Source of the DNA: Acidobacteriota bacterium
GTDB lineage: Bacteria; Acidobacteriota; Thermoanaerobaculia; Multivoradales; UBA5704
Length of the DNA stretch: 26,677 nucleotides
Direction of reading: 5' to 3'
NCBI GenBank assembly: GCA_040005235.1
Contig: JBDTZG010000070.1
Location: 1 to 26,677 of the forward strand
Shown here: positions 1 through 18,900 of the stretch, piece after piece
Position numbering within the stretch: the stretch's first letter is position 1
How the letters are laid out: every line of letters starts with the position of its first letter
Translations under genes and position numbers: made by a program
The notes under the pieces: generated by a model
What the model was told of the DNA's origin: nothing
Seen by the model: the letters and a program-made list of their open reading frames with translations, nothing else
The model's database searches: none

Positions 1-91
1 CGAGGCCGCCGATCGGCGAAGCGACCGACAGCGCCGCGAGATCGGCCGCGGGGAGCCCACTGAGAAGTGCGGCAATCGAGGCGTCGAGCAT
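1..91 (-). CDS. Possible 5' end of a gene running off the left edge (MLDASIAALLSGLPAADLAALSVASPIGGL...), product unknown
   Basis: ATG at 91-89 opens a stop-free frame to the window edge, divergent from the M61 start at 149. Too short to assign. Confidence 0.3.
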   Translation of the reverse strand, partial: MLDASIAALLSGLPAADLAALSVASPIGGL

Positions 92-148
92 GGCCGAAGT
101 ATACGGCTCTGGCGCGGCCACTCGGTTCGGGTTAAGGTCCCGCCGGTC

Positions 149-391
149 ATGTCCGCACCGATCCGCCACACGCTCCGGTTCGCCGCGCCGGAGAGCCATT
201 ATCTGGAGGTCGAATCGAGCTTTCCCGCACCGGAGGACCCGGCCGCGGGCTTGGAACTTTCGATGGCGGTGTGGACGCCCGGCTCCTACCTGATCCGCGA
301 GTACTCGCGCCACGTCGAGTCGATCTCCGCCGAGGATTCGACCGGCGGACGGCTGCCAATCGCCAAGACCCGCAAGAACCGGTGGCGGGTC
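149..391 (+). pseudogene. 5' fragment (81 codons) of an M61-family glycyl aminopeptidase, interrupted at the 392-465 palindrome
   Basis: Translation contains HYLEVE...LSMAVWTPGSYLIREYSRHV...KTRKNRWRV, the typical M61 N-terminal domain. Similarity stops at 391 and there is no HExxH. The remainder of ORF 149..622 is the palindrome plus antisense NRPS sequence. Confidence 0.8.
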
Positions 392-2382
392 GTGGTTTCG
401 TTTGTCCCGCAGCGACTGGCTGCTGCCGAAGGCGCCCGAAGGAGCGAGGAGGCAAACGAAACCACTTCCGGCCCGCCCGGACCACCGTCCAGCAGCACCA
501 CGCGAGTCGCCTCGGACAGCTCCGGCAGGCGTGGAAGAGTCTTCTCGTCGCTGAGCAGCACGGCCGGCGTCTGGCCGCGTTGCGCGTCTTCGAGCTGGAA
601 CGCCACCCGATCGGCCGGATAGGCCGGATCGATCGGCACGTAAGCGCCTCCGGCGGCCAGGATGCCGAGCAGGCCGAACACCATCTCGGGCGAGCGCTCG
701 GCGCACAGGCCGACGCGCACCTCGGGACCCACCCCGAGATCGGCGAGGTGGCACGCCCAAGCGTCTACTCGCTCTTGCAACTGCCGGTAGGTGAAGCGCT
801 GCGCGCCGCAGATCAGCGCCGTCGCCGTGGGCGTCCGCGCGGCTTGCGCTCCCACCAACTCGTGCAGCAGAAAACCGTGCCCCGTCGCTTCTCCGGTGTC
901 GTTCCACTCGCGGAGCAGTTGCGCCGTTTCCGCCGCCGAGGCGAGCGGCAGCGTGGCGATTTCGCCGGTGCCGTCGCCGAGCCGGGCGATCAGCTCGCTC
1001 CAAGCACCCAGCAGACGTGCCGCGGTGGTCGCATCGAACAGGTCGGAGTTGTAGACCAGGCGGAATCCCAGCTCCTCCCCCACCTCCGCCGCGATCAGCG
1101 AAAGATCGAACTGCGAGCGCCGGAGGGCGAACGGCCGGGGCGTAGCCACCAGCCCGCCGAGATCCATCGGCGGCCCCGAAACCCCGAGCGCGAGCGCACC
1201 CAGCGCGGCGTTTTCCGAGGGCTCCCGGCGCGGCGTTCGCTGAAAAGCCAACAGCGCCTGGAAGATCGGCGCGCGGCTCGGGTCGCGGACCGGCCGCAGG
1301 CGCTCGACGAGGAGCGGAAACGGCAGCCCGGCATGCGCGAGCGCGCCTTTCACCGTGGCGCGGACCTGCGCCGACAGCTCGGCGAAGGTTTTCACCGACG
1401 CGAAATCGGCGGCGAGCACGACCGGGTTCACGAAGTAGCCGACGGTGCGGTCGAGACCCGGCTCCGCGCGCCCGGCGGTAGGCGAACCGACCAGGATTTC
1501 CCGCTGCCCCGCGTAGCGGTGGAGCAGCGTTTGAAACCCGGCGAGCAGGACGCCGAACAGGGTGAGGCCCTGGGCGCGCGCGAGCCGTCGAATCCCCGCC
1601 GCCGCCGCGGCATCGAGGCGATGCGTCAGCGAGCCGCCGACAAAGGTCTGGACCGCCGGCCGCGGCCGGTCGGTTGGCAAGTCGAGCGGCGGCAGCTCCC
1701 CCGCCAGGCGCTCCAGCCAATAGCGCCAGAGCCGCTCGCCCTCCGGCCCCGCGAGCCGCTCTTCCTGCCGCGCCGCGTAAGCGCGGAAGTCTTTTGGCGG
1801 CCGACCCAGGTCCGGCGCAACCGGCGCCCCCGCCGCCGCCGCGGCATAGAGGCTCCCCAGGTCGCGGGCGAGGATCGCGAGCGACGCGAAATCGGCGACG
1901 GCGTGATGAACGCTAAGCGCCAGCACCGCGTCCGTCGGTTCGCCGTCCTGCGTGCGGCGATTCCAGAACCCCACCCGGCAGAGCGGTCCGAGCGCGAGGT
2001 CGAACGGGCGGTGGGCCAGGTCCAGCAGCTCCGCCTCGAAAGCGCCGTCGAATTCGGCGACCTCGCGGACCGCGAGGTTGAGGTCCATCCGCTCGTGGAC
2101 GCGCAGCACCGGCTCTCCGGCCGCCTCGGGAAACGCGGTGCGCAGGGCCGGATGGCGCGCGACCAGAGCGGCGAGCGCGCGGCCGAGCGCCGCCGGATCG
2201 ACCGCTGTGCGAATGCGCACCGCCGCCGCGATGTGGTTCGCGCCGTTACCCGGCGACAGCCGCTCCAGAAACCAGAGCGCCCGTTGCCCCGCCGAAGGGC
2301 GGGAGTCGGCGGAAAGGTCGGTTTCCTCGCGGAGGGCCGGGACCGGCTCCACCGCAGGCATCTCGACCAGGGTTCGGCTCAT
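286..2382 (-). CDS. NRPS with N-terminal condensation domain and a truncated adenylation domain (native sequence ends at about 466)
   Basis: C domain with SAGQRALWFL, HHAVADFAS and VGYFVN. A-domain motifs A1 (FTYRQL) and A2 (LAAGGAYVPID) are present, but A3 (YTSGSTG) and everything after it are missing. The ORF tail 465-286 is the palindrome plus antisense M61. Confidence 0.9.
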   Translation of the reverse strand: MSRTLVEMPAVEPVPALREETDLSADSRPSAGQRALWFLERLSPGNGANHIAAAVRIRTAVDPAALGRALAALVARHPALRTAFPEAAGEPVLRVHERMDLNLAVREVAEFDGAFEAELLDLAHRPFDLALGPLCRVGFWNRRTQDGEPTDAVLALSVHHAVADFASLAILARDLGSLYAAAAAGAPVAPDLGRPPKDFRAYAARQEERLAGPEGERLWRYWLERLAGELPPLDLPTDRPRPAVQTFVGGSLTHRLDAAAAAGIRRLARAQGLTLFGVLLAGFQTLLHRYAGQREILVGSPTAGRAEPGLDRTVGYFVNPVVLAADFASVKTFAELSAQVRATVKGALAHAGLPFPLLVERLRPVRDPSRAPIFQALLAFQRTPRREPSENAALGALALGVSGPPMDLGGLVATPRPFALRRSQFDLSLIAAEVGEELGFRLVYNSDLFDATTAARLLGAWSELIARLGDGTGEIATLPLASAAETAQLLREWNDTGEATGHGFLLHELVGAQAARTPTATALICGAQRFTYRQLQERVDAWACHLADLGVGPEVRVGLCAERSPEMVFGLLGILAAGGAYVPIDPAYPADRVAFQLEDAQRGQTPAVLLSDEKTLPRLPELSEATRVVLLDGGPGGPEVVSFASSLLRAPSAAASRCGTNETTTRHRFLRVLAIGSRPPVESSAEIDSTWREYSRIR
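392..465. repeat. 74-bp palindromic element with perfect 13-bp terminal inverted repeats (MITE/REP/RPE-like)
   Basis: GTGGTTTCGTTTG (392-404) is the exact reverse complement of CAAACGAAACCAC (453-465). Internal hairpins are GCAGCG/TGCTGC (409-426), CC-GAA-GG (426-432) and CGCCC-GAA-GGAGCG (433-446). Confidence 0.8.
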
Positions 2383-2427
2383 CGCACGCGCCCGATGGTG
2401 AACCTCCTCCTTGGACCGCGCACCGGA

Positions 2428-4638
2428 TCAGATCTCCAGAAGGTAGGTGAACTTGAGGATCAACTGGCGCTCGCGCGATTGGAGGTTGCCGAGGCTCGGG
2501 GCGATCCAGTTCTGGTTGTAGACCAAGTAGATGTCGGCGCCCGGGCGGTAGATCCAGTTGAAACGCAGATTGAGTGACATGAGGTCGGCCGAATCGTTGT
2601 ATTGGAGGAAGGCATTGGCCGAGATCGTGGGGTTCAGCGACACGCTCAGCCGCTCGCGGAAGATGTTGGCGATGAACGCCCCGCCGCGCAGATCGACGTC
2701 GTCGCGCGTCCACCGCGTCTCGGAGCGCAGGAAGCGGCTGGGGCGCAGGCCGAACGTGAGCGCGCTCGACAGGCGCTTGCCGTCGTAGAACTGGCCCTGC
2801 ATGACGGTGCCGCTCGCATAGACGTTGCGCCGCGTCGGCGAGGTGGCGTAGGTGATGCCGCAGTCGGCGAAGTCATGCTCGCCGCGCGGAATCACGATCC
2901 CCGAGCGGATCTCGAACGGCAGGACCAGCCGATCGCGGTTGATGTCGACGAAGAAGGTCGCTTGGTCTTCCTTGTCGGTCACGAAGCCGGCGAGATCGAA
3001 AGTCCCGGCGAGCGTCTCCAGAGAGTTGTCGAGGTCGGTGATCACCTCGGCCTGGGCGTTGAACGCCAGGTTCCTGAAGCCGGGGATCTTGGGCTTCGGC
3101 TTATAAGTCAGGGCGGGCGCATAGCGGCGGATGCCGTTCCTCAGCACGAAGCCGGCCTCCGGATTGAACTGCTCGCCGATCTCCATCGCTTCGAGCGACC
3201 AGATCCAAAACTGCCCGCTCCACACCGCGGAGGCGCCGCCGGAGCGATCGGAGACGCCGGGGTCGTGACTCTGGGCGTAGAACGCGTTCAGGTTGAGCTT
3301 CGGGCTCGGGTTCAAGTCGGCGTCGAAGCCGACGACTTGATTGTCGTCCTTGCCGTCGTGGTCGCGGCTGGTGAAGATCATCCCCACCGAGGAGCGCTCG
3401 CCGACGTTGCGTTTGACCCGCACCACTCCCCAGTTGTCGGCGCCGAGACCGCCCACGACGCCGCTTTGCGCCTGCGTGCGCGATTCGGTCGAAACGTCGA
3501 GCAGGCCGAGGCTCCATTCGCCGACGCGGCCGGTCAGCCGGGTCCCCCATTCGATCGGCACCGGCGTGCCGTTGGGAGTGATGCCGAGCCGGCGCGAAAA
3601 GAACAGCTTGAGCGGCGGTGTGCCGCCGAGCTGGCTCGGCGGTACAAACTCGAAGATGCCGGTGTTTTCGAGGAAGAACTCGCGTTTCTCTTTGAGGAAG
3701 AGCGAGAAGCGGGTGAGGTTGGTCTGCTGGTCGTCCGCCTCGGCCTCCGCGAAGTCCGTGTTGTAGGTGAGGTCGAGCGCCAGACCGCGGGTGATCCCCC
3801 ATTTCAGGTCGACGCCGGCCTCCGCGTTGGTGTCGTTCACGCCGGTGGTCGAGAAGTCGGTCTGCGAGCCGACCACGTGCGGCTTGATGCGCAGGTTCAA
3901 GCCCTGCTCCAAACCGGCGAGGCCGGTCAGATGCCCGGCGCGCGACATGCGCAGAAGGCTCGCGTCGCGCCCCACCTGGGTCCAATACGACTGCTCGCCG
4001 GAGCGCGCCACCAAGCGGCGGACGTTGAACCCCCAGGTATCCAGCTTGGGATCGAAACGCAGGGTGGCGAAGGGGATCGCCATCTCCGAGGTCCACCCCT
4101 CGGGCGTGATCCGCGAAGCGGCGCTCCAGACGCCGTCCCAGTCGCTGTTGAGGGTTCGGCCCTCGTCGGAGGAGAGGGCGTCGAGCTGTGCGCCGTTCGG
4201 ATTGACTTCGAGAAAATAGCCGTTCCGGTGGTCGTGGAAGGTGTCGAGCATCACGATCACCGAATCGTCGCGGAACAGCCGGCCGTCGTACTCCATCTCC
4301 TTGGCGACGATTTTCTCGGGGTGAGGATCGAAGCAGCGCAAGGCGATGTAGAGCGTGGTGGGCGTGTACGCAACCAACACCTCCGTGCGTTCCGAGGCCG
4401 GCTCGGTCGGCTTCTCGCGCTGGGTAAACGCGCCGCCCGCTTCCGCCTTGGACCACACCTCCTCGTCGAGTCGGCCGTCCACCAGAATCGGCTCGGCGAT
4501 CGGCAGCGCCGCGAGGTTTCTCGGCGGGATCGAATGCTGCGCCGCGGCCGGCCGCGCTCCGACGATCGCCGCCGTCAGCGCCAGAATCGCCAGGGCCGCA
4601 CGCCCCATGGGGCGCCACCGCGTTGTAGGATGCCGCAT
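2428..4638 (-). CDS. CBM9-like / DUF5916 domain exported protein, probable outer-membrane beta-barrel
   Basis: Signal peptide (AALAILALTAAIVGARPAAA), CBM9-like VDGRLDE...W and DTFHD...NPNG, DUF5916-like NTDFAEAEAD...NLTRFSLF..EKREFFLE, and C-terminal LILKFTYL beta strand. Start set at ATG 4638 (alternative 4608) instead of 5610, because the extension lies antisense to the SDR gene. Confidence 0.8.
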   Translation of the reverse strand: MRHPTTRWRPMGRAALAILALTAAIVGARPAAAQHSIPPRNLAALPIAEPILVDGRLDEEVWSKAEAGGAFTQREKPTEPASERTEVLVAYTPTTLYIALRCFDPHPEKIVAKEMEYDGRLFRDDSVIVMLDTFHDHRNGYFLEVNPNGAQLDALSSDEGRTLNSDWDGVWSAASRITPEGWTSEMAIPFATLRFDPKLDTWGFNVRRLVARSGEQSYWTQVGRDASLLRMSRAGHLTGLAGLEQGLNLRIKPHVVGSQTDFSTTGVNDTNAEAGVDLKWGITRGLALDLTYNTDFAEAEADDQQTNLTRFSLFLKEKREFFLENTGIFEFVPPSQLGGTPPLKLFFSRRLGITPNGTPVPIEWGTRLTGRVGEWSLGLLDVSTESRTQAQSGVVGGLGADNWGVVRVKRNVGERSSVGMIFTSRDHDGKDDNQVVGFDADLNPSPKLNLNAFYAQSHDPGVSDRSGGASAVWSGQFWIWSLEAMEIGEQFNPEAGFVLRNGIRRYAPALTYKPKPKIPGFRNLAFNAQAEVITDLDNSLETLAGTFDLAGFVTDKEDQATFFVDINRDRLVLPFEIRSGIVIPRGEHDFADCGITYATSPTRRNVYASGTVMQGQFYDGKRLSSALTFGLRPSRFLRSETRWTRDDVDLRGGAFIANIFRERLSVSLNPTISANAFLQYNDSADLMSLNLRFNWIYRPGADIYLVYNQNWIAPSLGNLQSRERQLILKFTYLLEI

Positions 4639-5585
4639 CGATCTACCCCAAGTCGTCGCAGGATTCCCGGAGGAGCGATGAACCAAACCATCCTCGTCGT
4701 CGGCGCGACCGGCAACTACGCCCAACCGGTCTGCCGGCAATTGAGCCAGGACGGGTTCAACGTTCGCGTCTTCACCCGAAAGCGGGAGAAGGCGACGCGA
4801 ATTTTCGGGGATCGTTTCCCGATCTTTGAGGGCGACGTCGAAAAACCGGCCACGCTCTCGGCCGCGCTCGAAGGTTGTTGGGGCGTGCACGTCAGCCTGC
4901 GCGGCTGGTTCAAGCACCAGAGCCACGATCGGATCGAGCATCTGGGGACCGCCAATGTCGTGCGGGCGGCGAAGGCGGCCGGCGTCGAGCGGCTCGGTTA
5001 CCTCTCCTGCCTGTTCGCGCGGCCCGGCTACTCCGACCTGCCGCACCTCAAGGCCAAGGTCGACGCCGAGGCGGCGATCCGCGCGGGCGGCATCCCGTTC
5101 GCCGTTTTCGCCCCCAGCTTCTTCATGGAGAACATGCACCACCTGAAGGGCGGCCCGCGCATTTTCGTCCCCGCTCTGCCGGAGCGCACGTTCCATTATC
5201 TCGCCGCCAACGACTACGTGCAGCAGGTGGCCCGCTTTTTCCGCCTTCCCGAGGCGCCCAACCGGCGCTTCGACCTGTACGGCCCCGACGCGCTCACCCA
5301 AGGAGACGCGACGCTCCAGTTCTGCGCCCGCGCCCGCCCCGGCACCCGCGTTCGTTTCGTTCCGATCTGGCTGTCCGACCTGTACCAACGCCTCATCGGG
5401 CACCAGAACCGCCAATACTCGATGAAGATCCTGCGCCTGTACCAACGCTCCGGCGAGCCGCCGGAGACGCGGGACGCGGTCGCCGACGGCTTGCTCGGAC
5501 GTCCCGCCACGACCTACGGCAGCTGGTGCGCGGCCCAGGCTCCCGGGGTCTCGGTCTATCACGGCTGAGAGCTGGCGCATCGATC
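4634..5585. repeat. 10-bp direct repeat CGCATCGATC (4634-4643 and 5576-5585) flanking the SDR gene
   Basis: Exact copies read from the sequence, 942 bp apart. The ATCGAT core is common in this DNA, so chance is possible. Confidence 0.45.
4678..5568 (+). CDS. NmrA-like / atypical SDR NAD(P)-binding protein
   Basis: GGAGGAG RBS at 4669-4675 before ATG 4678. Rossmann motif ILVVGATGNY, plus GTANVVRAAKAAGV, HLKAK..AE and PSFFMEN. Confidence 0.85.
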   Translation: MNQTILVVGATGNYAQPVCRQLSQDGFNVRVFTRKREKATRIFGDRFPIFEGDVEKPATLSAALEGCWGVHVSLRGWFKHQSHDRIEHLGTANVVRAAKAAGVERLGYLSCLFARPGYSDLPHLKAKVDAEAAIRAGGIPFAVFAPSFFMENMHHLKGGPRIFVPALPERTFHYLAANDYVQQVARFFRLPEAPNRRFDLYGPDALTQGDATLQFCARARPGTRVRFVPIWLSDLYQRLIGHQNRQYSMKILRLYQRSGEPPETRDAVADGLLGRPATTYGSWCAAQAPGVSVYHG

Positions 5586-5606
5586 GGTTGCGCGGATCTC
5601 CGGCGC

Positions 5607-7610
5607 TCAATTCGACACCAGCATCAGAGCTTTCGCCCGCCCTTTGAGCCCGACCGCATCGCGGGCCAGGCCATCACGGCGCACCTGCCGGCTCTCCCCC
5701 ACGGCCCGGCGCTCTTTCTGGTACGCCGTCCGCAGCAGGTTCGCCGCGTCGAGGTGCAGCGAGCGCTCTTCCAGGACCTGATAGGCGTCCTCGGTGTCGA
5801 ACGAGGCGATGTCGAGCAGGTTCTTCGCCGCGTCGAACGGCCGGCCGACGGCGGCCTGGTCGAGCTCGGTCGACGATCGAATGTTTTCGAGCGAATTGAG
5901 AACGCGCAGTAGCGCCGCCACGGCCTCGACCTGGGTGGTCTCCAGATGGATGCCGATGTTGCCCGTGTCGCCGCCCTTCAAGCCCAATCCTGCGGGCGAA
6001 TTGTTGAACGCCGCGCTGTTGTAGAAGTCGACCGCCTCCTCGATCGTCGCGACCGAGTTGTTGTGGAAGAACGGGCCGGTGTCGGCGGCCTCGACCACCA
6101 CCGCGGAGTTGAAGCGACCGTTGCCGAAACCGCCGCGCGAGTTGCTCGTCCGTCCGAAGCCGCGGTCGACGGGCGTGCCGCCGGGCTGGATCAGGGTCGC
6201 GGGGAGATCGGGTAGGTCCTCGATGCCGACGTCGAAATTGCGATTTTCGTCGCCGATCGAGATGTTAGAGCCGCCGTTGAAGTGGCAGCGGTTGCACTTG
6301 CCGGCCGCCTTGGTCGCGCGCACGGTATCGCCGGTCAAGTAGATCTCCTGCCCGCGGGAGACCAGAGGCGAGGTGAAGCGCAGCGCCGGCAGGTCGAGAT
6401 CCTCCTGCCGGCCCAGGGCGAGCTGAAACGCCGCCATGGCGTCGAGCTCATGATCGGTTGGAACGCGGAAATCCACATCCGGGCGGCGCGCGAGGTTGCG
6501 GGTGAAATGCTGGGTGATGGCGCCGAGCGCGAATTCGCGCAGCGAGCCGCTGCCGGGAGCGCCGTCGCCCCCCCAGCCCAGCCGCTCGACCGGCGGAATG
6601 GTCTCGAACGGCGAGTTCGGCTGCGGCAGCCGAGAATGCCGGAGCGCCAGGGTGTGGGGCACGCCGCGCAGCACGAACTTGCGGCCCAGGTCTTCGAACC
6701 CGTCGGGGTTTTCGAGCACCAGCCCGAGCTGGCGCAGCGAGTTTCCCTTCTCGAAGTTCTGGCCTAAGTCCGGGTTGTTCTCGAAGACGAACAGCGGATC
6801 GTTTGCCGGCAGGGCGGCGATGAACTTCGGATCGATCGTGAAGTTGTTCCGCGCCGGATGGCAGCTGGCGCAGGTCCGCCCGTTGCCGCTGAAGGTGGCC
6901 TCCTGAAACAGGGTGGCTCCCTCCGCGACCAGCGGATCGAGCGAATCGAACGGCGTGGCCCGGGCGACGCCGGGGCCGAACAGCGAAGCCGCTTCGGAAA
7001 GCCCCCGCAGCGGCAGCGGGCTCCATTCCGTGTTGCGCTCGGTGTACAGCCGCTGGAACAGGTCGGGCGCGCCGAACAGGACTCCCCCTTCTTCCGGCTT
7101 GCCGCCCGCGCGCACGACCACCGCGGAATCGGCCCGGAAACGCCGGAAGAACTCGCCGCCGAGCCGCGCGGAAAGCTGCGCCGAACCGCTCACCGAGGTG
7201 ACCCTGCCGATCGGCTGCATCCGGTCGTCGGCGTCCGGCATCGCGCCGCCGCCGGGGTGGTTCTCGACCAGCCAGACGTCCCACGCGGTACCGGGCGGCA
7301 GCCCTTCCAGCCGTACCCGGGCGGTGCCTTCGACCAGGTTGAGACGCACGGTGCCGCCCGCTTCGGTCGCTTCGCGCGAAAATCCTTTCGCCCAGCCGAG
7401 AGCGAAGGAAACGTTCTTGTCCCCGCCGCCCAGTGCATGCGCCGCCGACCAGCTGCGGTACGAGGCGGTGAGCGCCGAAACGTTGGCCCCTGCTGCCGCC
7501 GCCGACCGCCCCGCGGGTTCCTTCACACCCGGTTCGAAGAGGACCCAAGGGAGGCCCAGCACCAAGGCTCCCGACAGCACGCCGACCCAGACCTTGAACC
7601 TCATTCGCAT
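5607..7610 (-). CDS. Exported or membrane-anchored di-heme cytochrome c peroxidase superfamily protein (MauG/BthA-like)
   Basis: N-terminal hydrophobic segment, CASCH (6858-6872), CNRCH (6282-6296), LGWGGD, and GPFFHNNS..TIEEAVDFY. AGGAGG RBS upstream of the start. Confidence 0.85.
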   Translation of the reverse strand: MRMRFKVWVGVLSGALVLGLPWVLFEPGVKEPAGRSAAAAGANVSALTASYRSWSAAHALGGGDKNVSFALGWAKGFSREATEAGGTVRLNLVEGTARVRLEGLPPGTAWDVWLVENHPGGGAMPDADDRMQPIGRVTSVSGSAQLSARLGGEFFRRFRADSAVVVRAGGKPEEGGVLFGAPDLFQRLYTERNTEWSPLPLRGLSEAASLFGPGVARATPFDSLDPLVAEGATLFQEATFSGNGRTCASCHPARNNFTIDPKFIAALPANDPLFVFENNPDLGQNFEKGNSLRQLGLVLENPDGFEDLGRKFVLRGVPHTLALRHSRLPQPNSPFETIPPVERLGWGGDGAPGSGSLREFALGAITQHFTRNLARRPDVDFRVPTDHELDAMAAFQLALGRQEDLDLPALRFTSPLVSRGQEIYLTGDTVRATKAAGKCNRCHFNGGSNISIGDENRNFDVGIEDLPDLPATLIQPGGTPVDRGFGRTSNSRGGFGNGRFNSAVVVEAADTGPFFHNNSVATIEEAVDFYNSAAFNNSPAGLGLKGGDTGNIGIHLETTQVEAVAALLRVLNSLENIRSSTELDQAAVGRPFDAAKNLLDIASFDTEDAYQVLEERSLHLDAANLLRTAYQKERRAVGESRQVRRDGLARDAVGLKGRAKALMLVSN

Positions 7611-8749: not shown

Positions 8750-9820
8750 TCACCGATCAACCTGTTCGTTCAGCTCGCGCTGTTCCGGCGGCGCCTCGGC
8801 GTCGATTCTATGGAGGGCCTCAAGGTCTGCGTCGGTCACTGGTATTCCCCGCTTCTGACGCTCTTCCGCCGCTTCGGCCTCCAGATCTCCCGGTGCCACG
8901 ATTCGCTCGGTCGAGGCGGCAGCAGTCTGGGAACGCAGCAGCGCGAGGAGACGCGACAGCCGACCCCGTACCTGTTCGACAGGCCCGAAGGCTCCAAGCT
9001 CGAACCCGACGAACAGATGGGAGGTCCGGCGCGGCTTGTCCCACGGAGGATCGAACAGGTGGGTGAGCTCGTGATCGAGCAGGTCGCCCGCCAAGACCGA
9101 GGTGACGACCTCGACCAGCAGGGCCAGGCACATCCCTTTGTGCCCGCCGAGCGGCTTGAGCGCGACCACCTGCGCGCTCCCGGCCTCCGCGGCGTCGCGT
9201 CCATCGGCGGTGACCGCCCATCCCGGCTCCAGAGGCAAGCCGGCCAGGCGGCGCTCGCGGATCTTCGAGAAGGCGATCTGGCTGGTCGCCATGTCGATGC
9301 AGAGGAGGTCGTCCTCGGCTTCGCCGCGCATCGCGAAAGAAAAAGGATTGGTGCCGAAAAATGGCACGATCCCCCCGTGCGGCGCCACCAGGGCGTCGCT
9401 GTTGGTGAATGCCAAACCGGCCAGGTTTCGGCGAGCCATTTCCACCGAATAGATCGCTGCCGAGCCGAAGTAGTTCGAGTTGTTGACCGCGACTGCGCCC
9501 AAGCCGTGCTCGCGGGCAAGCCGGACGACCTCGGCGGTAGCCGTCCGGCCGGCCACGATGCCGAGCGCCGCGCCGGCATCTAGAGTGCGTACGGTGCTCG
9601 CGGAGCCGTGCCAGACCATCTCGGGACGGGCCTTCGAGCGCCCGCCGTCCAGCTCCGCGAGCAGCGTCGGCGCCAGGCGGACACCGTGGGTGTCGGAGCC
9701 ACGAAGCGAGGTTTCGACCAGGCCGTCCGCCACCCAGGCGGCATGCTCGTTCGACAACCCGCGGCGGAGAATCGCCCGCTCCACCAGGCGCAGCAATCGA
9801 TCGGCCGCTATGCGTTTCAC
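8750..9820 (-). CDS. Ldh_2 family (type 2 malate/lactate/ureidoglycolate dehydrogenase-like) NAD(P)-dependent oxidoreductase
   Basis: LRGSDTHGV, NSNYFG, FGTNPFSF, IDMATS, LKPLGGHKG and APGD motifs. The GTG start at 9820 overlaps the upstream TGA (GTGA). Confidence 0.88.
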   Translation of the reverse strand: MKRIAADRLLRLVERAILRRGLSNEHAAWVADGLVETSLRGSDTHGVRLAPTLLAELDGGRSKARPEMVWHGSASTVRTLDAGAALGIVAGRTATAEVVRLAREHGLGAVAVNNSNYFGSAAIYSVEMARRNLAGLAFTNSDALVAPHGGIVPFFGTNPFSFAMRGEAEDDLLCIDMATSQIAFSKIRERRLAGLPLEPGWAVTADGRDAAEAGSAQVVALKPLGGHKGMCLALLVEVVTSVLAGDLLDHELTHLFDPPWDKPRRTSHLFVGFELGAFGPVEQVRGRLSRLLALLRSQTAAASTERIVAPGDLEAEAAEERQKRGIPVTDADLEALHRIDAEAPPEQRELNEQVDR

Positions 9821-11112
9821 GGGTCCTGGCGTTCCCGGACGAAGCGGGCGAAGGCCCGGACGCCGCGGTCGACCTGCTCCGGCGTCACGTAGCTGAACGA
9901 GAGGCGGACCTGCCGCTCGCGGCCGGGAGCGAGCGCGAAGAAGCGCATCGGGCAACAGATCACGCCGTGGGTGCGGGCGCAGAAGTCCAGCTCCGCCTCG
10001 CCGAAGTCGAACGACAGGTCCAGGGTGAGGAAATAACCCCCGGCCGGGCGGTTCCAGGTGACCCCCGTCCCGGCGAGCTCGCGATCGAGCGCGGCCAGCA
10101 TCGCATCGCGGTTCGCCCGGTAGTGAGGCAGCTTCCGGCCGACCAGGTCGCGCAGGCTGCCTCCTGCTTCGAGCAGCAGACCGCCGGCGACCGCCTGCAT
10201 CAACGGCGGCGTGTTGACCGTGGTGAGGCTCTTGACCTTGGCCAGCTCGCCCGCGAGCGGCCGAAGGCTTCCGTCCGGACCGACCACCTGTTGATCGGCG
10301 ACGAGATAACCGATGCGCAACCCTGGAAAGAGCGTCTTCGAAAAACTGCCGAGGTAGACCACGCCGGCAGCGGAATCAAGCGATTTGATCGTCGGCGCCG
10401 GAGCGGCGTCGTAGGCGAACATTCCGTAGGGATTGTCTTCGAACAGCAGCACGTCCTCTTCGCGCAACAGATCGAGAAGCTCGCGACGTACCGCCGTCGG
10501 CATCGAGGTTCCCATCGGGTTGTTAAAATCGGGGATGTCGTAGAGTGCCCGCGGCCGGCCCCCAGCCGCGCGGACCTTGGCGATCGCCGCCAGGACCGCC
10601 GCCAGTTCGAGGCCCTCGGGTCCTATCGCCACCGGCGCGACCTCGATCCCCAGGATCCGAGCCAGGCCGGTGATCCCAATGTAGGTCGGATCGCTCGCCA
10701 ACAGCACGTCGCGCCCGGGTTCGAAAAGCGTGAGCAGGAGCAGAGCCATCGCCTCCTGGCAGCCGCAGGTGACGACGATCGATTCGGGTTCGGCCCGGAT
10801 TCCCTCGTCGGCCGCGAGCTGCGCGGCAATCAACTCTTTGAGAATGCCGTTGGTGGCGCCGTACTGGCCGAGCTCGCGATAGACCGCGCGGGCATCGACC
10901 CCGCGCTGGTTTGCCCGCCACTCGACGAAACGCGGGATCGCGCCGAGGCTCCCCTCGACGTCGAACAACTCCTCGGCCGGACGGCCGGGCGCGAACGAGA
11001 CGGCCTGCGGATAACGCTGGACCACCTCGTTGAGGAAGTTCATCACGTCGAGGAGAGGATCCTCGAACACGCCGCCCAGCCGCAGACCGGAAACGCTCGC
11101 TGCAATGGCCAA
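9817..11112 (-). CDS. hpgT: PLP-dependent class I aminotransferase, HpgT/Pgat-like (hydroxyphenylglycine transaminase)
   Basis: DPLLDVMNFLNE...SFAPGRP, QYGATNG, PTYIGITG, FNNPMGTSM, EDNPYG, YLGSFSK and LAKVKSLTTVNT follow glycopeptide HpgT as I recall it. Start TTG 11112 is approximate. Confidence 0.8.
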   Translation of the reverse strand: MAIAASVSGLRLGGVFEDPLLDVMNFLNEVVQRYPQAVSFAPGRPAEELFDVEGSLGAIPRFVEWRANQRGVDARAVYRELGQYGATNGILKELIAAQLAADEGIRAEPESIVVTCGCQEAMALLLLTLFEPGRDVLLASDPTYIGITGLARILGIEVAPVAIGPEGLELAAVLAAIAKVRAAGGRPRALYDIPDFNNPMGTSMPTAVRRELLDLLREEDVLLFEDNPYGMFAYDAAPAPTIKSLDSAAGVVYLGSFSKTLFPGLRIGYLVADQQVVGPDGSLRPLAGELAKVKSLTTVNTPPLMQAVAGGLLLEAGGSLRDLVGRKLPHYRANRDAMLAALDRELAGTGVTWNRPAGGYFLTLDLSFDFGEAELDFCARTHGVICCPMRFFALAPGRERQVRLSFSYVTPEQVDRGVRAFARFVRERQDP

Positions 11113-11125
11113 GATCCGGCGGTCT

Positions 11126-11650
11126 CTAGAAGGAGTCCTTCGCTTCCAGCTGGGAGAACAACTCCTGGACGCTCTGGTCGGAGAAGTCTCCTTTGCCACT
11201 GCGATCGATGAATTCGATCATCAGCCCCGAACCGGCATCGCGATGAGTGAAGATCTGCTGCAAACCCGGGCTGCGGATGATCGTCGTGTCGAATTCGAGC
11301 CCGGATTCTTTGAGGCCCGAGGCGATTTCTTCGATGTTTTCGACCGCGATCGCGATGTGCTGAACCCCGGGACCGTAATGCTCGATGAAACGAGACACCT
11401 GGGATTGCGGCGAGGTACCCTGGATCAAGACGAACGTGAGCGGCCCGGCCTTCATCACCGCCGAGACCATCGCGGTCGCGGTCCCTTCGGTCCGGCGCCG
11501 CTCGGCAAGCTCGAAGCCCAAAGTCTTGGTGAAGAACTCGATCGAAGCTTCAAGGTCGGGCACCGCGATCGCGACGTGATCGATGCCCGTGGCGTGCCGA
11601 ACGAGAACGGAGGCGATACTTTCAGTCTGGGACCTGGATTCTTGAGTCAA
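11126..11650 (-). CDS. Single-domain VOC protein resembling the catalytic C-terminal half of HPPD / 4-hydroxymandelate synthase (about 174 aa)
   Basis: GAGGAGGG RBS before TTG 11650. IDH / GPGVQH / MIEFI metal triad, AMVSAV, SQVSRF, QQIF, and an HPPD-like C-terminal helix RSGKGDFSDQSVQELFSQLE. Confidence 0.8.
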   Translation of the reverse strand: MTQESRSQTESIASVLVRHATGIDHVAIAVPDLEASIEFFTKTLGFELAERRRTEGTATAMVSAVMKAGPLTFVLIQGTSPQSQVSRFIEHYGPGVQHIAIAVENIEEIASGLKESGLEFDTTIIRSPGLQQIFTHRDAGSGLMIEFIDRSGKGDFSDQSVQELFSQLEAKDSF

Positions 11651-13512
<1,862 letters not shown>

Positions 13513-13531: not shown

Positions 13532-15967
13532 TTGACCGAGCTCGCGAGGGATCTCCGACATTCTGCCCGGCTGTTGGTGAAGAACCCGATCTTCACCACG
13601 ATTGCCGTCCTCTCGCTTGCGCTCGGCATCGGTGCGAATACGGCGGTTTTCACCCTGGCCAACACGCTCTTGCTCCGCCCCCTCCCGGTGCGGGATCCCG
13701 GTCGCCTGGTCCGTCTGTCCGCGACGGACAAAGAAGGGAACACGGGAGCCTTCGCCTATCCCGACTATGTCGATTACCGGAACCAGAACCATTCGTTTTC
13801 CGGGCTGCTCGCCCATTCCTCCGCGCGAGTGGGGGTAAATACGGGCCAAGGAGAACCGGAGATCGTCTTCGGCGAGGTGGTCTCGGAGAACTACTTCGAC
13901 GTTCTCGGAGCGACGACGGCCTTCGGCCGTACCTTTCTCCCCGACGAGGGAAGGGCTCCTGGAAAGAGCCCGGTGGTGGTCTTGAGCGACAGCTTCTGGC
14001 GCAGGCGCCTGGCCGGCTCCCCCGGAGCGGTCGGCAGCAGCGTGCGGATCAACGGCAATCCGTTCACCGTCATTGGGATCGCTCCTGCCGGCTTCCAGGG
14101 GACTCTCGAAGGAGGCGTCCTCCCCTCTTCCTTCTGGATCCCCAGCATGATGTACGCCCAGGTCGGTACCTCAGACATCACCCTTCGCAACTCCGTGGGA
14201 TTCGAGTTGGTAGGCAGGCTGAGGGCCGGCGTAACGGTCGAGACCGCCCAATCCGAAATGAGCGGGCTGGCGCGCAATTTGGAACAGGCCTACCCCGACG
14301 ACACCGAATTCCATTTCAAGAAGCGTCTCGTCCAGCTCGTGGCGCTCAGATCGGTCCTGCCCTCGATGCACGGGATCGTCGTGGCGCTCATGTCGTTCCT
14401 CATGGGGGTGGTGGGACTGGTGCTCCTGACCGCCTGTACCAACCTGGCCAACATGCTGCTGGTTCGGATGTCGACGCGCGCCCGAGAGCTGGCCACCCGG
14501 CTCGCCCTGGGGGCGCGCCGAGGGGCCTTGATCCGCCAACTGCTGGTCGAGAGCCTCCTGCTCGCCGTGATGGGCGGGGTCTTGGGACTTTTTCTCGCCT
14601 ATCTCACGGTGAGAGGCCTGACCCGGATTCACTTGCCGACGCCGGTCCCGATTCAGTTCGATCTCGCCATGGACTGGCGGGTGCTGGCGTTCTGCTCGTT
14701 CGTCTCGGTTCTCACCGTGGTGCTGTTCGGTCTCATCCCTGCGCTGCAAGCGACTCGACTGAGCCCGGCCACCGTGCTCAAGGAGAATACCGGCGGCGAG
14801 AGCCGGAGCGGCAACAAGCTGCGCAAGATCTTCGTCGTCGCACAGCTCTCGATCTCGATGCTGTTGCTCATCTTTTCCGGCTTGCTGCTGCGCAGCCTGA
14901 CGGGCGTGAACCATATCGACCCGGGCTTTCAAGTCGACAACGGCCTCGCCGTGTCACTCGACCTCGGGGTCAAGAAATACCAGGAGGACGACGGTCTTCG
15001 GTTTTTCGACGGGCTCTACGAGCAGGTCCGCGCTCTGCCGGGCGTGCGCGGCGCGAGCCTCGCAGGCCGCATACCTCTCACCTCCGGTAACAGCACGATC
15101 GATGTCCAACTCGCTGGCAGTACCGACTGGTCGGAGATCGACACCAACCTGGTCGACGCCGAGTACTTCAAGACGATGGCCATTGCGATGCTCCAGGGTC
15201 GTGAATTTTCGGTCCGAGATGATCGGCAGGCTCCCCGCGCCGTGGTGGTCAGCAAGGCGATGGCGGAGCGACTCTGGCCCGGCGCCCAGGCATTGGGCCA
15301 ACGCCTGTCGATCCGCGGCGACGAGGGCGCGGCCGAAGTGGTGGGAGTCGCCGCCGACGGCAACTACCGCACTCTAGAAGAGGCCCCAAGGCCGCACATC
15401 TATCGGGCGCTCCGGCAGGAGTACGACGGTGCGATGATCCTCCTGGTGCGCACCACGGCCGATCCGCAGCGGGTGATCCCGCAGATCCGGGAGGCGGTTC
15501 ACCGCCTGGACCAGGACCTGCCTCTCTATGGCGTGACCACCCTGCGGGAGCACGTGGATGCCTCGGTGCTGCCGGCGCGCATGGCGGCGATCCTGCTTGG
15601 AATTCTCGGTCTCTTGACCCTCGGTCTCGCGGGGATCGGGATCTACGGGGTGATGGCCTACTCCGTGGGCCAACGCACGCACGAGATCGGCATCCGGGTG
15701 AGCGTTGGAGCCCAGCAGGGCGACATCTTGAAGATGCTGCTCGTCCAAGGGGGGCGATTGGTGTTGATCGGCATCGGCATCGGCATCGTCCTGGCGCTCG
15801 CCCTGACCCGATTCGCGTCGAGCCTTCTCTACGGCGTGAGCTCGACCGACCCGTTGACGTTTTTGGGGATCGCGGCACTGCTCGCGATCATCTCCCTGTT
15901 CGCGGTCTTCCTACCGGCCCGCAGAGCGATGCGGCTCGATCCACAAACCGCATTGCGCCGGCAGTAG
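13532..15967 (+). CDS. Duplicated MacB/FtsX-type ABC permease (ADOP-like)
   Basis: DLRHSARLL.K.P.FT.IAVLSLALGIGANTAVF, then two MacB_PCD plus FtsX halves (CTNLANMLL...RELATRLALGA and QRTHEIGIRVSVGA), ending in PARRA..LDP..ALR. Confidence 0.92.
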   Translation: MTELARDLRHSARLLVKNPIFTTIAVLSLALGIGANTAVFTLANTLLLRPLPVRDPGRLVRLSATDKEGNTGAFAYPDYVDYRNQNHSFSGLLAHSSARVGVNTGQGEPEIVFGEVVSENYFDVLGATTAFGRTFLPDEGRAPGKSPVVVLSDSFWRRRLAGSPGAVGSSVRINGNPFTVIGIAPAGFQGTLEGGVLPSSFWIPSMMYAQVGTSDITLRNSVGFELVGRLRAGVTVETAQSEMSGLARNLEQAYPDDTEFHFKKRLVQLVALRSVLPSMHGIVVALMSFLMGVVGLVLLTACTNLANMLLVRMSTRARELATRLALGARRGALIRQLLVESLLLAVMGGVLGLFLAYLTVRGLTRIHLPTPVPIQFDLAMDWRVLAFCSFVSVLTVVLFGLIPALQATRLSPATVLKENTGGESRSGNKLRKIFVVAQLSISMLLLIFSGLLLRSLTGVNHIDPGFQVDNGLAVSLDLGVKKYQEDDGLRFFDGLYEQVRALPGVRGASLAGRIPLTSGNSTIDVQLAGSTDWSEIDTNLVDAEYFKTMAIAMLQGREFSVRDDRQAPRAVVVSKAMAERLWPGAQALGQRLSIRGDEGAAEVVGVAADGNYRTLEEAPRPHIYRALRQEYDGAMILLVRTTADPQRVIPQIREAVHRLDQDLPLYGVTTLREHVDASVLPARMAAILLGILGLLTLGLAGIGIYGVMAYSVGQRTHEIGIRVSVGAQQGDILKMLLVQGGRLVLIGIGIGIVLALALTRFASSLLYGVSSTDPLTFLGIAALLAIISLFAVFLPARRAMRLDPQTALRRQ

Positions 15968-15988: not shown

Positions 15989-18900
15989 TCACGAGGAGCC
16001 GGGGACTTTGGCGGCCCTCGCCTTGAGCGTGCGGGCGAAGCCCTCCACCCGGGGGACTCGGATCGCGGAGTAGTGGTCTCCGGGAATACCGACGACTTCG
16101 AGCCGTTGCGCCAAACGCCCCCACCCGAGATCGGCTTTGCGCGGCCCGGCGCCGTCTTCGCAGCGAAAGAGCGTGACCGCCCCGCCGTATGAGGCCGGCC
16201 GGTACCGCTCCAGAGCGAGCCGGTTGGCCTTGAAGATCTCCAGGTGCTCCAAGACGTCCTCGACTTCAAACCCGGCGGGCAGAGCTCCCGCCCGACGCGC
16301 TTCCGCCAAGATCCGATGCAGCGCCTGATCTGGCGACAGAGCCAAAAGCTCCGCTGAGGCAAGATCCAGATCGCCGCCGAAAACCCCCATCAAATCGCGG
16401 CAGAACTCGAACCGGGCTCGCTGTTCGTCGCTCGGCCCCTCGCCCCTCCCGTCCACCTCGGTCGCCCCGGCCTTCCGGGCAACCGGTATTGCCGCATCCA
16501 CCAGCGCCAGGAAGTCGACCGTCTGTCCTCGCTGCGCGAGTCGACAGGCCATCTCGTAGGCGACCACTCCTCCCATCGACCAGCCCCCGAGACGATAGGG
16601 GCCGCTCGGCCAGATCGCCGTGATCTGTTCCAGGTAGGTGGCGGCCAGGCTCTCGATCGAGGGCGGCTCGTCCGCGGTCGTCTGAGGCATCGTCTGAGGC
16701 ATCGCCTGAAGCGCCTGAAAGGGCAGGTCCGATCCCAGATGCCGCGCCAATTCCAGATAGGAGAAGACCTGGCCCCCCACGGGATGGACGAAGATCAGCG
16801 GCGGCTCGGCCGGCGTTTCATCCCCAGGCCGAAAGCTTACCAAGGAGGAGGGGACCGGTCGCTCGGGCCGTCGGCGCAACCGTTCGGCGAGATGCTCGAT
16901 CGTCGGGTGCTCGAAGAGTGTCGAGAGAGGCAGCTCGAGACCGAGCCGACGGCGAATCCGCGCCATCAGGCCCACGGCGAGCAGGGAATGCCCCCCCAGG
17001 TCGAAGAAGCTGTCGGTCACCCCGATCGGCCGGACGCCGAGCAGCTCTTCCCAGATCAGCACCAGCGCCAGCTCCAGGGGCTCCCGGGGCGGCCGAGCCG
17101 AGGCCTTGCGGCTCGGCGCGTCGCCGGGAACCGGCAGGCGCTGTCGATCCACCTTCCCGCTCGCGGTCAGCGGCAAAGTTTCCAGGACCACCCAGGCGGC
17201 AGGAACCATGTAGGCCGGCAGGCGCTCGCGCAAAGCCTGGCGCAGCAGGTCGTCCGAGGCCTCGCCGACCACATAGGCGATCAGCCGCCGGTCGCCGGGT
17301 TCGTCCACGCGCACCACCACGACCGCCTGGCGGACTCCGGGCAGCCCGACCAGCACCGATTCGACCTCTCCCAGCTCGACGCGGAAGCCGCGAATCTTCA
17401 CCTGCCGATCCGCTCGGCCGGCGAAGACCAGCTCTCCCTCCGGCCGTAGGTACGCCAGGTCGCCGGTACGGTAGAGCCGGGCGCCGGGCTCCGACGAGAA
17501 CGGATCGGGGAGAAAACGCTCGGCGGTGAGCGCCGGGCGCCTCAGGTAGCCGAGCGCAACCCCCGCGCCGCCGATCCACAGTTCGCCTCGCACGCCAATG
17601 GGCACAGGCTCCAGGAGGTCGTCCAGCACGTGGGTCCGAGCTCCGGTGACCGGCCGCCCGATCGGCACTGGTCCGGCTACCGAAAGATGGGTCAGCTCAC
17701 TGGCGGAAGCGACCACCGTCGCCTCGGTGGGTCCATAGCTGTTGACCAGGCGCACCGAGGCGCCGGCGCGTCGACGCCAGACGGCGAGCGGATCGGCCAG
17801 GGCTTCCTCACCGCCGACGATCACCAAACGGAGCCCCGGCGGCACCTGCAGATCCTCGGCCTCCATGCCGGCGACCAGCTCATGCCAGAACGCCGTCGGC
17901 AGGTCGAGCACCGTGATGCCGAGCCGCTCGACCTCGCGGAGGAAGCGCGGGATCGAATCGATCATGTCGGCAGTCCGCAGCACCAGAGCGGCACCCGAGG
18001 TGAGCGTCATCCAGATCTCTTCGACACTGGTGTCGAAACCGATCGCGGCAAACTGAAGGACGCGATCGCGCGGGGAAAGCTGGTAGCCGGCCCGTGCGGC
18101 GCGGACGAACGCGGTGATCGCTCGCTGGGGCACGACGACGCCTTTGGGCTGGCCGCTCGAACCGGAGGTGTAAATGACATACGCCGCACCTTCCGGCTCG
18201 ATTCGCGAGCCAGCCCCGTCGGCGTCGCCGAGGCTCGATTGCGCACTCCCGCCCCCTGGCTCGACCTCGGTGAGCCAGGCGGGCAGGAGCGCACCTGAGT
18301 CACTCAGGATCTGGTCGAGCCGTTCCTTCGGGTAGGTCGAATCGAGCGGCAGATAGGCCGCCCCCGACTGCAGCACGGAAACCATGGCGACGATCAGCTC
18401 CGGCTCGCGCTCCGCCGCAAGGGCTACAAGATCTCCGGGGCCGACCCTCTCGTCACCCAGGTGCCGCGCCTGAGTGCTCGCCCGCTCGATCAGCCGGGCA
18501 TAGGTGAAGGACCGATCGCCGAATTCCAACGCGATCGCGTCGGGAGCTCTCTGCGCCTGCTCCAAAACATCTCGATAAAGGTCGCCGCCCTGTTGAGGAG
18601 CCCCGGTATCGTTCCATTCCCAGAGAATTTGGCCTCTCTCGGCCGCGCTCAAGAACGCCAATGAAAAGACCGGCGCATCGGCGGCGGCGACCGCCGCCCA
18701 GAGCAGGCGGTCCAGGTGCTCGATCAGGCGTTCGATCGTCGCGGGATCGAATAGATTGGTGACGTACTCGACGGTGCCGCCGAGGCTTCCGCCGCTCTCC
18801 CCGAGGCTGAGGGTGAGATCGAACTTCGCCGTCCGATCGACTCCGCCCATCGGCCGGAACCGCAGGCTCTCGACCTCAAGGCTCGCAGCCGGGGCGTTCT

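Follow-up and report, generated by a model that had tools for sequence, protein, structure and literature searches.

Contig JBDTZG010000070.1, assigned to an uncultured acidobacterium of the class Thermoanaerobaculia, poses a simple question close to its start. Within the 26,677-nt stretch analyzed here (hereafter, the window), the 5' parts of an M61 glycyl-aminopeptidase gene and of a nonribosomal peptide synthetase (NRPS) gene converge on a 74-bp palindromic element (positions 392–465), which each gene enters at a codon boundary and can read without stops. A preliminary description of this locus, made from the sequence alone, suggested that the element may be a member of an undescribed family of mobile palindromes that tolerate translation and are present, in the same phase, in both genes. 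Does a short palindrome indeed spread through protein-coding genes in these bacteria, and does the window hold it in two of them? The analysis presented here favors a non-autonomous, hairpin-forming dispersed repeat of Thermoanaerobaculia, with a core of 74 bp and a length of about 80–81 bp when the outer triplets are included; the junction in the window is, we consider it likely, a place where two loci are joined at the repeat.

The core is bounded by perfect 13-bp terminal inverted repeats, the left one (GTGGTTTCGTTTG) at positions 392–404 of the + strand and the right one, its perfect complement, at 453–465 on the − strand. An RNA fold extends the stem inward through positions 405–408 (+), which pair with 448–449 and 451–452, and places three small hairpins in the interior: hairpin 1 at 409–423 (+), with a 5-bp stem and a 5-nt loop, which carries disruptive changes in two of the copies discussed below; hairpin 2 at 425–433 (+), with a 3-bp stem and a GAA loop, recovered in both the DNA and the RNA folds; and hairpin 3 at 434–445 (+), with a bulged 4-bp stem and a GAA loop, recovered in the RNA fold. 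The last two are invariant in 11 of the 11 copies that we compared. The overall fold is a stem of ~17 bp bearing these hairpins, two of them with GAA loops; the perfect ends and the multi-hairpin interior reported originally were recovered in the sequence and in the folds. The predicted free energy is −23.2 kcal/mol for the 74-mer as DNA (z −4.67) and −39.2 kcal/mol as RNA (z −5.12), and in each case none of the 200 dinucleotide shuffles folded as well. The cloverleaf-like 74-nt fold yielded 0 genes in an ARAGORN search for tRNA and tmRNA, and an Rfam scan of the element produced matches with E of 0.98–1.6 at best, far below the gathering scores. At up to two mismatches, the 13-bp ends have two matches in total in the window (0.27 expected; two or more in 2 of 100 shuffles), that is, the 26.7 kb hold one copy of the element.

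The + open reading frame (ORF) 149–622, the M61 frame, has a codon start at position 392 and reads the element as VVSFVPQRLAAAEGARRSEEANETT (this orientation and frame are denoted +A below), and the − ORF 2382–286, the NRPS frame (−A), has one at position 465; codon-boundary entry on both sides is therefore as first stated, and both peptides read as first written. The core is free of stop codons in all six frames, so that a stop-free reading does not depend on the phase. We considered, and rejected, the idea that openness in six frames was designed, because 16.5% of random 74-mers drawn from this GC-rich window and 17% of shuffles of the interior are equally open.

A search of 185,579 species-representative genomes for the two inner 11-base segments of the arms, 30–60 bases apart, yielded 21 loci, which comprise 10 copies of the same family, 7 loci of a distinct hairpin family from Dehalococcoidia and 4 isolated hairpins; the search pattern was fixed at 22 bases, and diverged copies as well as any long parent element are missed by it. 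The window's own contig was not among the matches. The same-family copies come from three metagenome-assembled genomes (MAGs), all from Thermoanaerobaculia: seven from SMAG_U4328, two from SMAG_U11143 and one from La6_metabat2.203. All 10 have the window's 48-nt interior, in either orientation, and 68–74 of the 74 bases identical to those in the window; two of them (L016 and L012) are identical to the window copy at 74 of 74 bases. The sequences flanking the 10 copies are mutually unrelated. Accordingly, the element is not a single-copy curiosity of this contig but a family represented by 10 genomic copies in three MAGs. The comparisons of DNA described below involve these 10 copies and the window copy (11 altogether), with 3 kb on each side of a copy examined.

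Translation of the element in real proteins was assessed by searching residues 70–112 of the window's + ORF against a collection of 5.8 billion proteins (+A; proteins of 276–2000 aa), together with the −A and +C readings (proteins of 176–2000 aa); all the searches were word-seeded. The +A peptide, of roughly 26 residues, was found in 16 of the 63 candidates, in unrelated proteins, with the consensus (V)VVSF(V/A)PQRLAAAEGARRSEEANETT(T). The opposite orientation was found in 1 of 86 candidates, at the extreme N-terminus of a DUF2063 protein (P0018), and frame +C in 1 of 2, a low-complexity ORF without a domain (P0020). Thus, 16 matches for +A compare to one for each of the other two readings, which is not a random choice of phase, nor is the family confined to intergenic DNA, given that these 16 database proteins and 2 of the 10 genomic copies carry the element in frame. 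The notion that the element is readable in both orientations holds for the letters; the proteins that actually contain it read it nearly all in one orientation. A phmmer search of a representative library with a 30-residue query produced four matches, three of them real (P0022–P0024) and one to an unrelated repeat protein; this library is too coarse for counting.

Together with a CHAT domain protein encoded at one of the genomic loci (L007), the 16 database proteins make up 17 coding copies, for which the position of the peptide was tabulated. In six, the peptide lies inside a domain: M61_N (P0002), HATPase_c of CheA (P0007), CheW (P0008), Condensation (P0011 and P0012, both placed by eye) and CHAT (L007); Pfam domains cross the insert in M61_N, HATPase_c, CheW and CHAT. 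Five copies are found in a linker or beside a domain (P0006, P0009, P0013, P0015, P0017), four in the first 50 residues (P0004, P0005, P0010, P0016) and two in a C-terminal tail (P0003, P0014). There are, then, at least 11 internal insertions. A structure model of P0009, based on a two-sequence alignment, had a mean pLDDT of 37.5 and was unusable. The frames differ in what they encode. The +A peptide has ends of beta-branched V and T residues and a charged middle, the frame C peptide is basic and cysteine-rich, and the peptide of the opposite orientation is uncharged and contains a cysteine. In both orientations, the canonical unit opens with TAG in frame B, so that an insertion in this frame truncates the protein.

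The most direct view of an insertion comes from a pair of polysaccharide deacetylase orthologs, P0009 and P0014, which are identical at 236 of 264 aligned positions and are separated by a single 27-residue gap that corresponds exactly to VVVSLAPQRLAAAEGARRSEEANETTT; P0014 has a further copy of the element in its C-terminal tail, which is absent from P0009. The gap implies an inserted length of 81 nt in the deacetylase case, which agrees with a unit made of the core, the outer triplets GTA and TAC, and one more base. A third V before VVSF in 9 of the 17 coding copies and a third T after NETT in 10 of the 17 are consistent with this length. Because the 74-bp core alone would shift the frame, the coding copies represent the subset with a total length that is a multiple of three. 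In the window, a possible full unit of 81 nt, with uncertain limits, spans positions 389–469, that is, the core with GTC on the left and TTC plus C on the right (canonically, GTA ... TAC). A unit of 84 bp (GGGTA, core, TACCC) was also considered and rejected, given that the clean presence/absence pair differs by 81 nt and that an 84-nt unit would leave M61 with too short a loop next to the structure 4fgm.

What, then, does the window itself contain? The M61 fragment occupies positions 149–391 (+; 81 codons, identified by Pfam and by the alignment with P0002) and is cut at the element: the Peptidase_M61_N match covers residues 8–81 of the + ORF and profile positions 3–74 of 168, ending at nucleotide 391, and the stump has no internal stop. 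On the other side, the NRPS fragment occupies positions 466–2382 (−; identified by Pfam), with a complete Condensation domain (residues 32–490) and only the start of the adenylation (A) domain (AMP-binding, residues 512–610, profile positions 3–98 of 384), and is likewise cut at the element. In an alignment with the intact A domain of the large NRPS encoded in the window, the element begins 39 residues past the last aligned residue, and the TSGSTG motif of the intact domain lies ~48 or more residues past that residue; the cut accordingly falls in a variable stretch ahead of the next core motif, where the preliminary description had put it. Beyond the element, each ORF continues solely as the antisense of the other gene, and the element sits between the two convergent stumps, 391 nt from the contig end. 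Because both homologies end at the element, it is a breakpoint rather than an insertion inside either gene of the window, and the claim that it is present in both genes finds no support: there is one copy, at the junction of two truncated genes.

The M61 half of the in-frame claim survives in an ortholog. P0002 is a full-length, 620-aa M61 protein with M61_N, M61 and PDZ domains that carries the element at the same codon as the window, and the window fragment is identical to it at 98 of 107 residues (92%) through the last residue of the element. Past this point, P0002 continues as M61 (TRGRVIVRYRLYAHDL), and the window continues as NRPS antisense. When P0002 is aligned with the M61 structure 4fgm, residues 35–81 and 110–594 match residues 29–74 and 80–576, respectively, so that the 28 residues of P0002 around the insert replace a 5-residue unaligned stretch between aligned blocks. 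Given that P0002 shares the in-frame copy and then diverges from the window, the window copy is M61's own, and the DNA to its right comes from elsewhere. For the NRPS, no intact protein bearing the element was found in the search of the opposite orientation. Of the family envisaged at the outset, the multi-copy, hairpin-forming and translation-tolerant character stands and the presence in two genes of the window does not. By inference, the NRPS stump must also have abutted a copy of the element, which would be a second one. The contig probably joins two loci through the repeat, with collapse of the assembly as the leading cause.

The next likeliest cause, and in our estimate an unlikely one, is a genuine junction produced by recombination between two copies, or by intramolecular transposition from M61 to the NRPS, with deletion or inversion of the intervening DNA and a hybrid copy left behind. 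Both stumps stop exactly at the ends of the element, dispersed, directly oriented 74-bp repeats are substrates for deletion, and the M61 stump is free of internal stops. However, such an event would have cost the genome both an NRPS module and a conserved peptidase in one stroke, and the 92% identical M61 ortholog is intact. Furthermore, the contig ends only 391 nt past the repeat, and a repeat of 74–81 bp may be short enough to mislead a short-read assembler, points that would likewise speak against a genuine junction.

Because the element has no stops, gene calls run through it on both strands, and gene callers yield two chimeric proteins, one at 149–622 (+; 157 aa) and the other at 286–2382 (−; 698 aa), each with a tail that consists of the repeat peptide followed by the antisense of the neighboring gene.

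The evidence that the hairpin itself is maintained comes from the comparison of the 11 copies, aligned with 12 nt of flanking sequence on each side (37 pairs, 407 cells). Paired cells make up 92.1%, compared to 87.6% in shuffles and 33–53% in slid controls; ten pairs are altered on both sides, and none of 500 shuffles reached the observed covariation score. Within the core, pairs 1/74, 2/73, 14/61 and 15/60 vary but are never broken, and positions 405/452 and 406/451 of the window (alignment columns 26/73 and 27/72) covary among the copies. The 11 inner arm pairs were fixed by the search pattern, and their invariance is therefore a matter of ascertainment and uninformative. In the proteins, P0015, P0016 and P0024 share a change of F to W along with a change of N to H, which, as read back from the codons, would be a TT-to-GG change in the stem paired with AA to CC, that is, a compensated subfamily that itself spread. 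An asymmetry between the strands among stem mismatches (G.T in 14 cells, A.C in 4) was also examined and set aside, being ~7 versus 4 events once shared variants were collapsed.

The complementarity extends beyond the core. The flanks differ from copy to copy, and each left flank complements its own right flank, at a mean of 3.9 of 5 positions, compared to 2.72 when right flanks are permuted among the loci (0 of 20,000 permutations reached the observed value). The commonest form is GGGTA|core|TACCC; at L010, it is CGCTC|core|GAGCG, and at L017, there is a perfect outer stem of 9 bp. The 10 genomic copies were all free of direct repeats at their ends that would represent a target-site duplication. 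Two readings fit these flanks: insertion into short palindromes or into the loops of hairpins, and compensatory evolution of the outer stem. L007 and L018 have GTAG, which the outer GTA makes together with the first G, at each of their ends, and L013 and L021 have it at a single end; the other 7 of the 11 copies lack it. The dinucleotide TA as a duplicated target was considered and rejected: TA stands at both ends only in L007 and L018 (2 of 11).

These ends bear on a further alternative, namely, that the element is a miniature inverted-repeat transposable element (MITE) that descends from a DDE transposon with identical ends and depends on it for movement; a TA-targeting transposon of the IS630/Tc1 type would be an example. 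The 13–17-bp terminal inverted repeats, the small size and the lack of any coding capacity of its own would suit a MITE, as would the TA that abuts both ends in L007 and L018; moreover, the Dehalococcoidia family has the same terminal 12 bases, as if a related transposase recognized both. Nevertheless, TA on both sides in only those two copies and direct duplication in none argue otherwise, as does the arithmetic of insertion: 74 + 2 is not divisible by three, and the single insertion that could be measured has 81 nt. Copy-specific, inverted-complement flanks and covarying stem pairs are not required by an end that is bound by protein as double-stranded DNA, and neither an insertion sequence (IS) with the ends of the element nor any further end-like site was found in the loci. 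On balance, we regard this derivation as rather improbable.

Where the genomic copies lie was judged by the GC content of codon positions and by the Pfam matches of the flanking ORFs. Eight of the 10 are intergenic and two coding. Among the intergenic ones, five start 0–23 nt past an upstream stop codon (L003, 9; L010, 23; L017, 13; L021, 7; and L018), and the remaining three (L008, L012 and L016) lie between divergent genes. Of the copies between co-directional genes, one is in sense orientation (L017) and three are antisense (L010, L018, L021). At L018, the upstream gene, which encodes a GFO/IDH/MocA oxidoreductase, ends in a TAG stop codon (2997–2999) made of the outer GTA of the repeat and its first base; the repeat may have shortened the C-terminus of the oxidoreductase and now supplies its stop. 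The two coding copies have the same orientation and frame as the M61 reading in the window. The first is located inside a CHAT domain (L007): the Pfam match, residues 948–1278 of a 1280-codon frame, crosses the element in one frame, and the protein reads ...GSPGV-VVSFVPQRLAAAEGARRSEETNETT-TRAGVYLAERWP...; a comparison with a CHAT paralog aimed at delimiting this insert produced an alignment that stopped short of the site. The second (L013) lies 30 nt past the ATG at which a membrane protein of 789 residues, 100% identical to a database entry, is annotated to start.

The proximity to stop codons, together with the high stability of the hairpin as RNA, the 92–100% sequence conservation over three MAG species and the dominance of one peptide frame, could suggest that the element is kept by selection for its function, not as selfish DNA, and is copied by recombination, its role being that of a structured RNA or terminator-like signal behind genes or of a peptide that benefits the host proteins. 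We find this improbable, more so than the derivation from a DDE transposon. The one sense and three antisense copies give no consistent transcript orientation, there is no U-run past the stem, and the Rfam scan found no match better than E 0.98; the host proteins have unrelated functions, the sites within them are loops, linkers and tails, and the orthologs manage without the element. An artifact, in which an adapter, a vector or a synthetic hairpin would mark a chimeric join, and which the position between two unrelated gene stumps near a contig end might bring to mind, can be dismissed with near certainty, because the same sequence occurs in 10 other loci of three MAGs that were assembled independently and in 16 proteins that come from several sources, matches none of 72,556 plasmid or 50,697 phage records by blastn, and appears in the papers searched only as strings in unrelated primers, and because the variant copies and covarying flanks exclude a single contaminating oligonucleotide.

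For the dispersed, hairpin-forming repeat that we favor, the following course can be proposed. The element would spread by entering short palindromes or the loops of hairpins while in the form of a single-stranded hairpin, mobilized in trans by an enzyme for which a Y1/HUH transposase of the RAYT/TIRYT kind is the best guess. By analogy, this tentative guess, which we hold at somewhat less than even, draws on the REPIN-like hairpin with compensatory changes and no duplication, on the GTAG at some of the ends, and on the existence of an Acidobacteria-specific transposase group. Selection would then keep those coding insertions that have a length divisible by three and the frame that gives a soluble, charged peptide, and frame B insertions would be tolerated only near the end of a gene, as in L018. 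As far as the sequence goes, the charged middle of the +A peptide, between its V and T ends, could project from a loop. A stronger version, possible but speculative, is that the element is shaped such that one of its six frames encodes a harmless, self-contained excursion of 27 residues, entering palindromic or hairpin targets without duplication. Under that version, the palindromic arms would impose the beta-branched V-V-V and T-T-T ends, with a charged, helix-prone stretch between them, and the structure-specific, single-strand mechanism would be one that is not known for coding insertions in any described transposase family.

Several observations weigh against parts of this account. With respect to the junction, the search of proteins in the opposite orientation found no intact NRPS that carries the element, and the NRPS would read it in an orientation that is otherwise nearly absent from proteins; in addition, the flank complementarity in the window is low (2 of 5), and equally low at L012 (1 of 5) and L016 (2 of 5). 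With respect to the frame preference, the counts rest on word-seeded, length-limited searches of +A, −A and +C, and 4 of the 16 matches, those at N-termini, may be ORFs over-extended by a gene caller through an upstream copy. With respect to mobility, no transposase domain (Y1_Tnp or any other) was found within 3 kb of the 10 family copies, which leaves the Y1/HUH proposal without direct support, and GTAG at both ends occurs in just 2 of the 11 DNA copies.

How does the element compare to known dispersed palindromes? The closest parallel in behavior is provided by Rickettsia palindromic elements (RPEs), which, according to the main text of PMC10969869, are ~150 bp long, form ten families and account for 44 integrations in R. 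conorii, of which close to half are ORF insertions that produce translational fusions; the same text describes in-frame insertion into functional genes as unusually frequent for RPEs and scattered for other elements. Like the RPEs of these main-text accounts (PMC10969869, PMC3733652), the Thermoanaerobaculia element is a dispersed, multi-copy palindrome found both in intergenic regions and in frame in unrelated ORFs, with a conserved peptide per family and no known transposase; RPE insertions are, in these accounts, regarded as compatible with the fold of the host protein. It differs from them in the host (uncultured, GC-rich Thermoanaerobaculia as opposed to obligate intracellular Rickettsia), in size (74–81 bp, about half of the ~150 bp given in PMC10969869), in that its coding copies are nearly all in one orientation and frame, and in having flanks that are mutually complementary in each copy. 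Because all family copies come from Thermoanaerobaculia MAGs, common descent with RPEs is unlikely, and we do not file the element as an RPE.

In anatomy, the element is closest to REPINs, hairpin-forming inverted doublets made of REPs (repetitive extragenic palindromes), with which it shares, as they are described in the main text of PMC3116915, units of ~70–110 bp, a long hairpin in single-stranded DNA or mRNA, conserved arms, a stem kept by compensatory changes, and many near-identical copies. REPINs, however, are near-exclusively extragenic, with 14 of 1,067 16-mers overlapping genes in Pseudomonas fluorescens SBW25 (PMC3116915, main text), whereas the coding sites of the present family include 2 of the 10 genomic copies and at least 11 internal positions in proteins. 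Besides, the arms of the element are not two copies of one REP, with just the first ~17 bases mirrored, and no RAYT was found within 3 kb of the copies. According to the main text of PMC3733652, REPs tagged with GTAG/CGTC are found within genes of several species, and REPs mostly lie downstream of coding regions; Acidobacteria have tyrosine transposases of a separate group (TIRYT), bordered by long inverted repeats that in part make up repeat families. That text gives 20–40 bp for REPs and describes no Thermoanaerobaculia family or conserved translated peptide. Intragenic MITEs (ERIC, QMITE1 and the Anabaena MITEs, in the main-text account of PMC10969869) are likewise small and non-autonomous, with terminal inverted repeats and occasional in-frame fusions. 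The present element has such ends, a similarly small size and no transposase gene, but MITEs are defined by a target-site duplication and a parent IS, neither of which was found for it.

Given that the element is not confined to extragenic DNA as REPs and REPINs are, shows no duplication as MITEs do, and is not tied to RPEs by any sign of descent, we file it as a new family. A literature search of main texts, without supplements, found no description of it, and its strings match unrelated primers only. It appears to be a new, apparently undescribed family of coding-tolerant palindromic repeats, RPE-like or REPIN-like. A second, unrelated family in another phylum would show that in-frame palindromes are not a quirk of reduced intracellular genomes, and natural pairs of proteins with and without the insert would lend themselves to the study of loop tolerance in proteins, of the joint constraint on a DNA hairpin and the peptide that it encodes, and of the mobilizing enzyme. 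In practical terms, such a repeat can mislead assemblers and gene callers; in the window, two chimeric ORFs and an apparently truncated NRPS cluster result from it.

The truncation concerns a biosynthetic cluster, and the gene cut at the repeat is the last NRPS gene of that cluster, the last module of which was probably cut by assembly, not biology. The large NRPS ORF (15989–26677, −) exceeds 3,500 codons, is open at the end of the window and contains at least three modules, which are 70–86% identical at the DNA level and repeat at a spacing of ~3.19 kb. Its neighbors encode a MacB/FtsX-type permease (13532–15967), a tryptophan halogenase (11908–13512), a glyoxalase-fold protein (11126–11833), an aminotransferase (9817–11199) and an Ldh_2 dehydrogenase (8750–9955).

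Among the family loci, L007 contains tandem TPR-CHAT paralogs (3–461, 2–3841 and 2989–6069, all +), one of which holds the repeat, and another CHAT gene (4865–6070, +) lies near the copy at L010.

The remaining matches of the genome scan fall into two classes. The four isolated hairpins, from other phyla and unrelated (L011, 3001–3064; L001, 3001–3062; L005, 2445–2517; L014, 605–680), are probably chance or local terminator-like structures; the one at L011 is a nearly perfect long hairpin. The other seven loci, from five Dehalococcoidia MAGs, represent a second hairpin family, which has the terminal 12 bases in common with the Thermoanaerobaculia element (GGTTTCGTTTGC ... GCAAACGAAACC) and a different interior. 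Ends common to two phyla could reflect a related mobilizing enzyme or a coincidence. Copies of this repeat were located at 3001–3070, 4565–4635 and 5361–5430 of L002, at 3001–3079 of L004 and L006, at 3001–3070 of L009 and L015, at 3001–3076 of L019 and at 3001–3077 of L020. Unlike the Thermoanaerobaculia family, they contain stops in most frames. Two transposase ORFs are found in these loci, one of the DDE_5 type (L004, 1192–2553, +), ~450 nt from the repeat copy, and one with a DUF772 (IS5-type) domain (L020, 5098–6075, +), ~2 kb from it; around these two ORFs, no further sites resembling the repeat ends were found. At L002, the three copies are contained within 2.4 kb, and the right arms of two of them have decayed.

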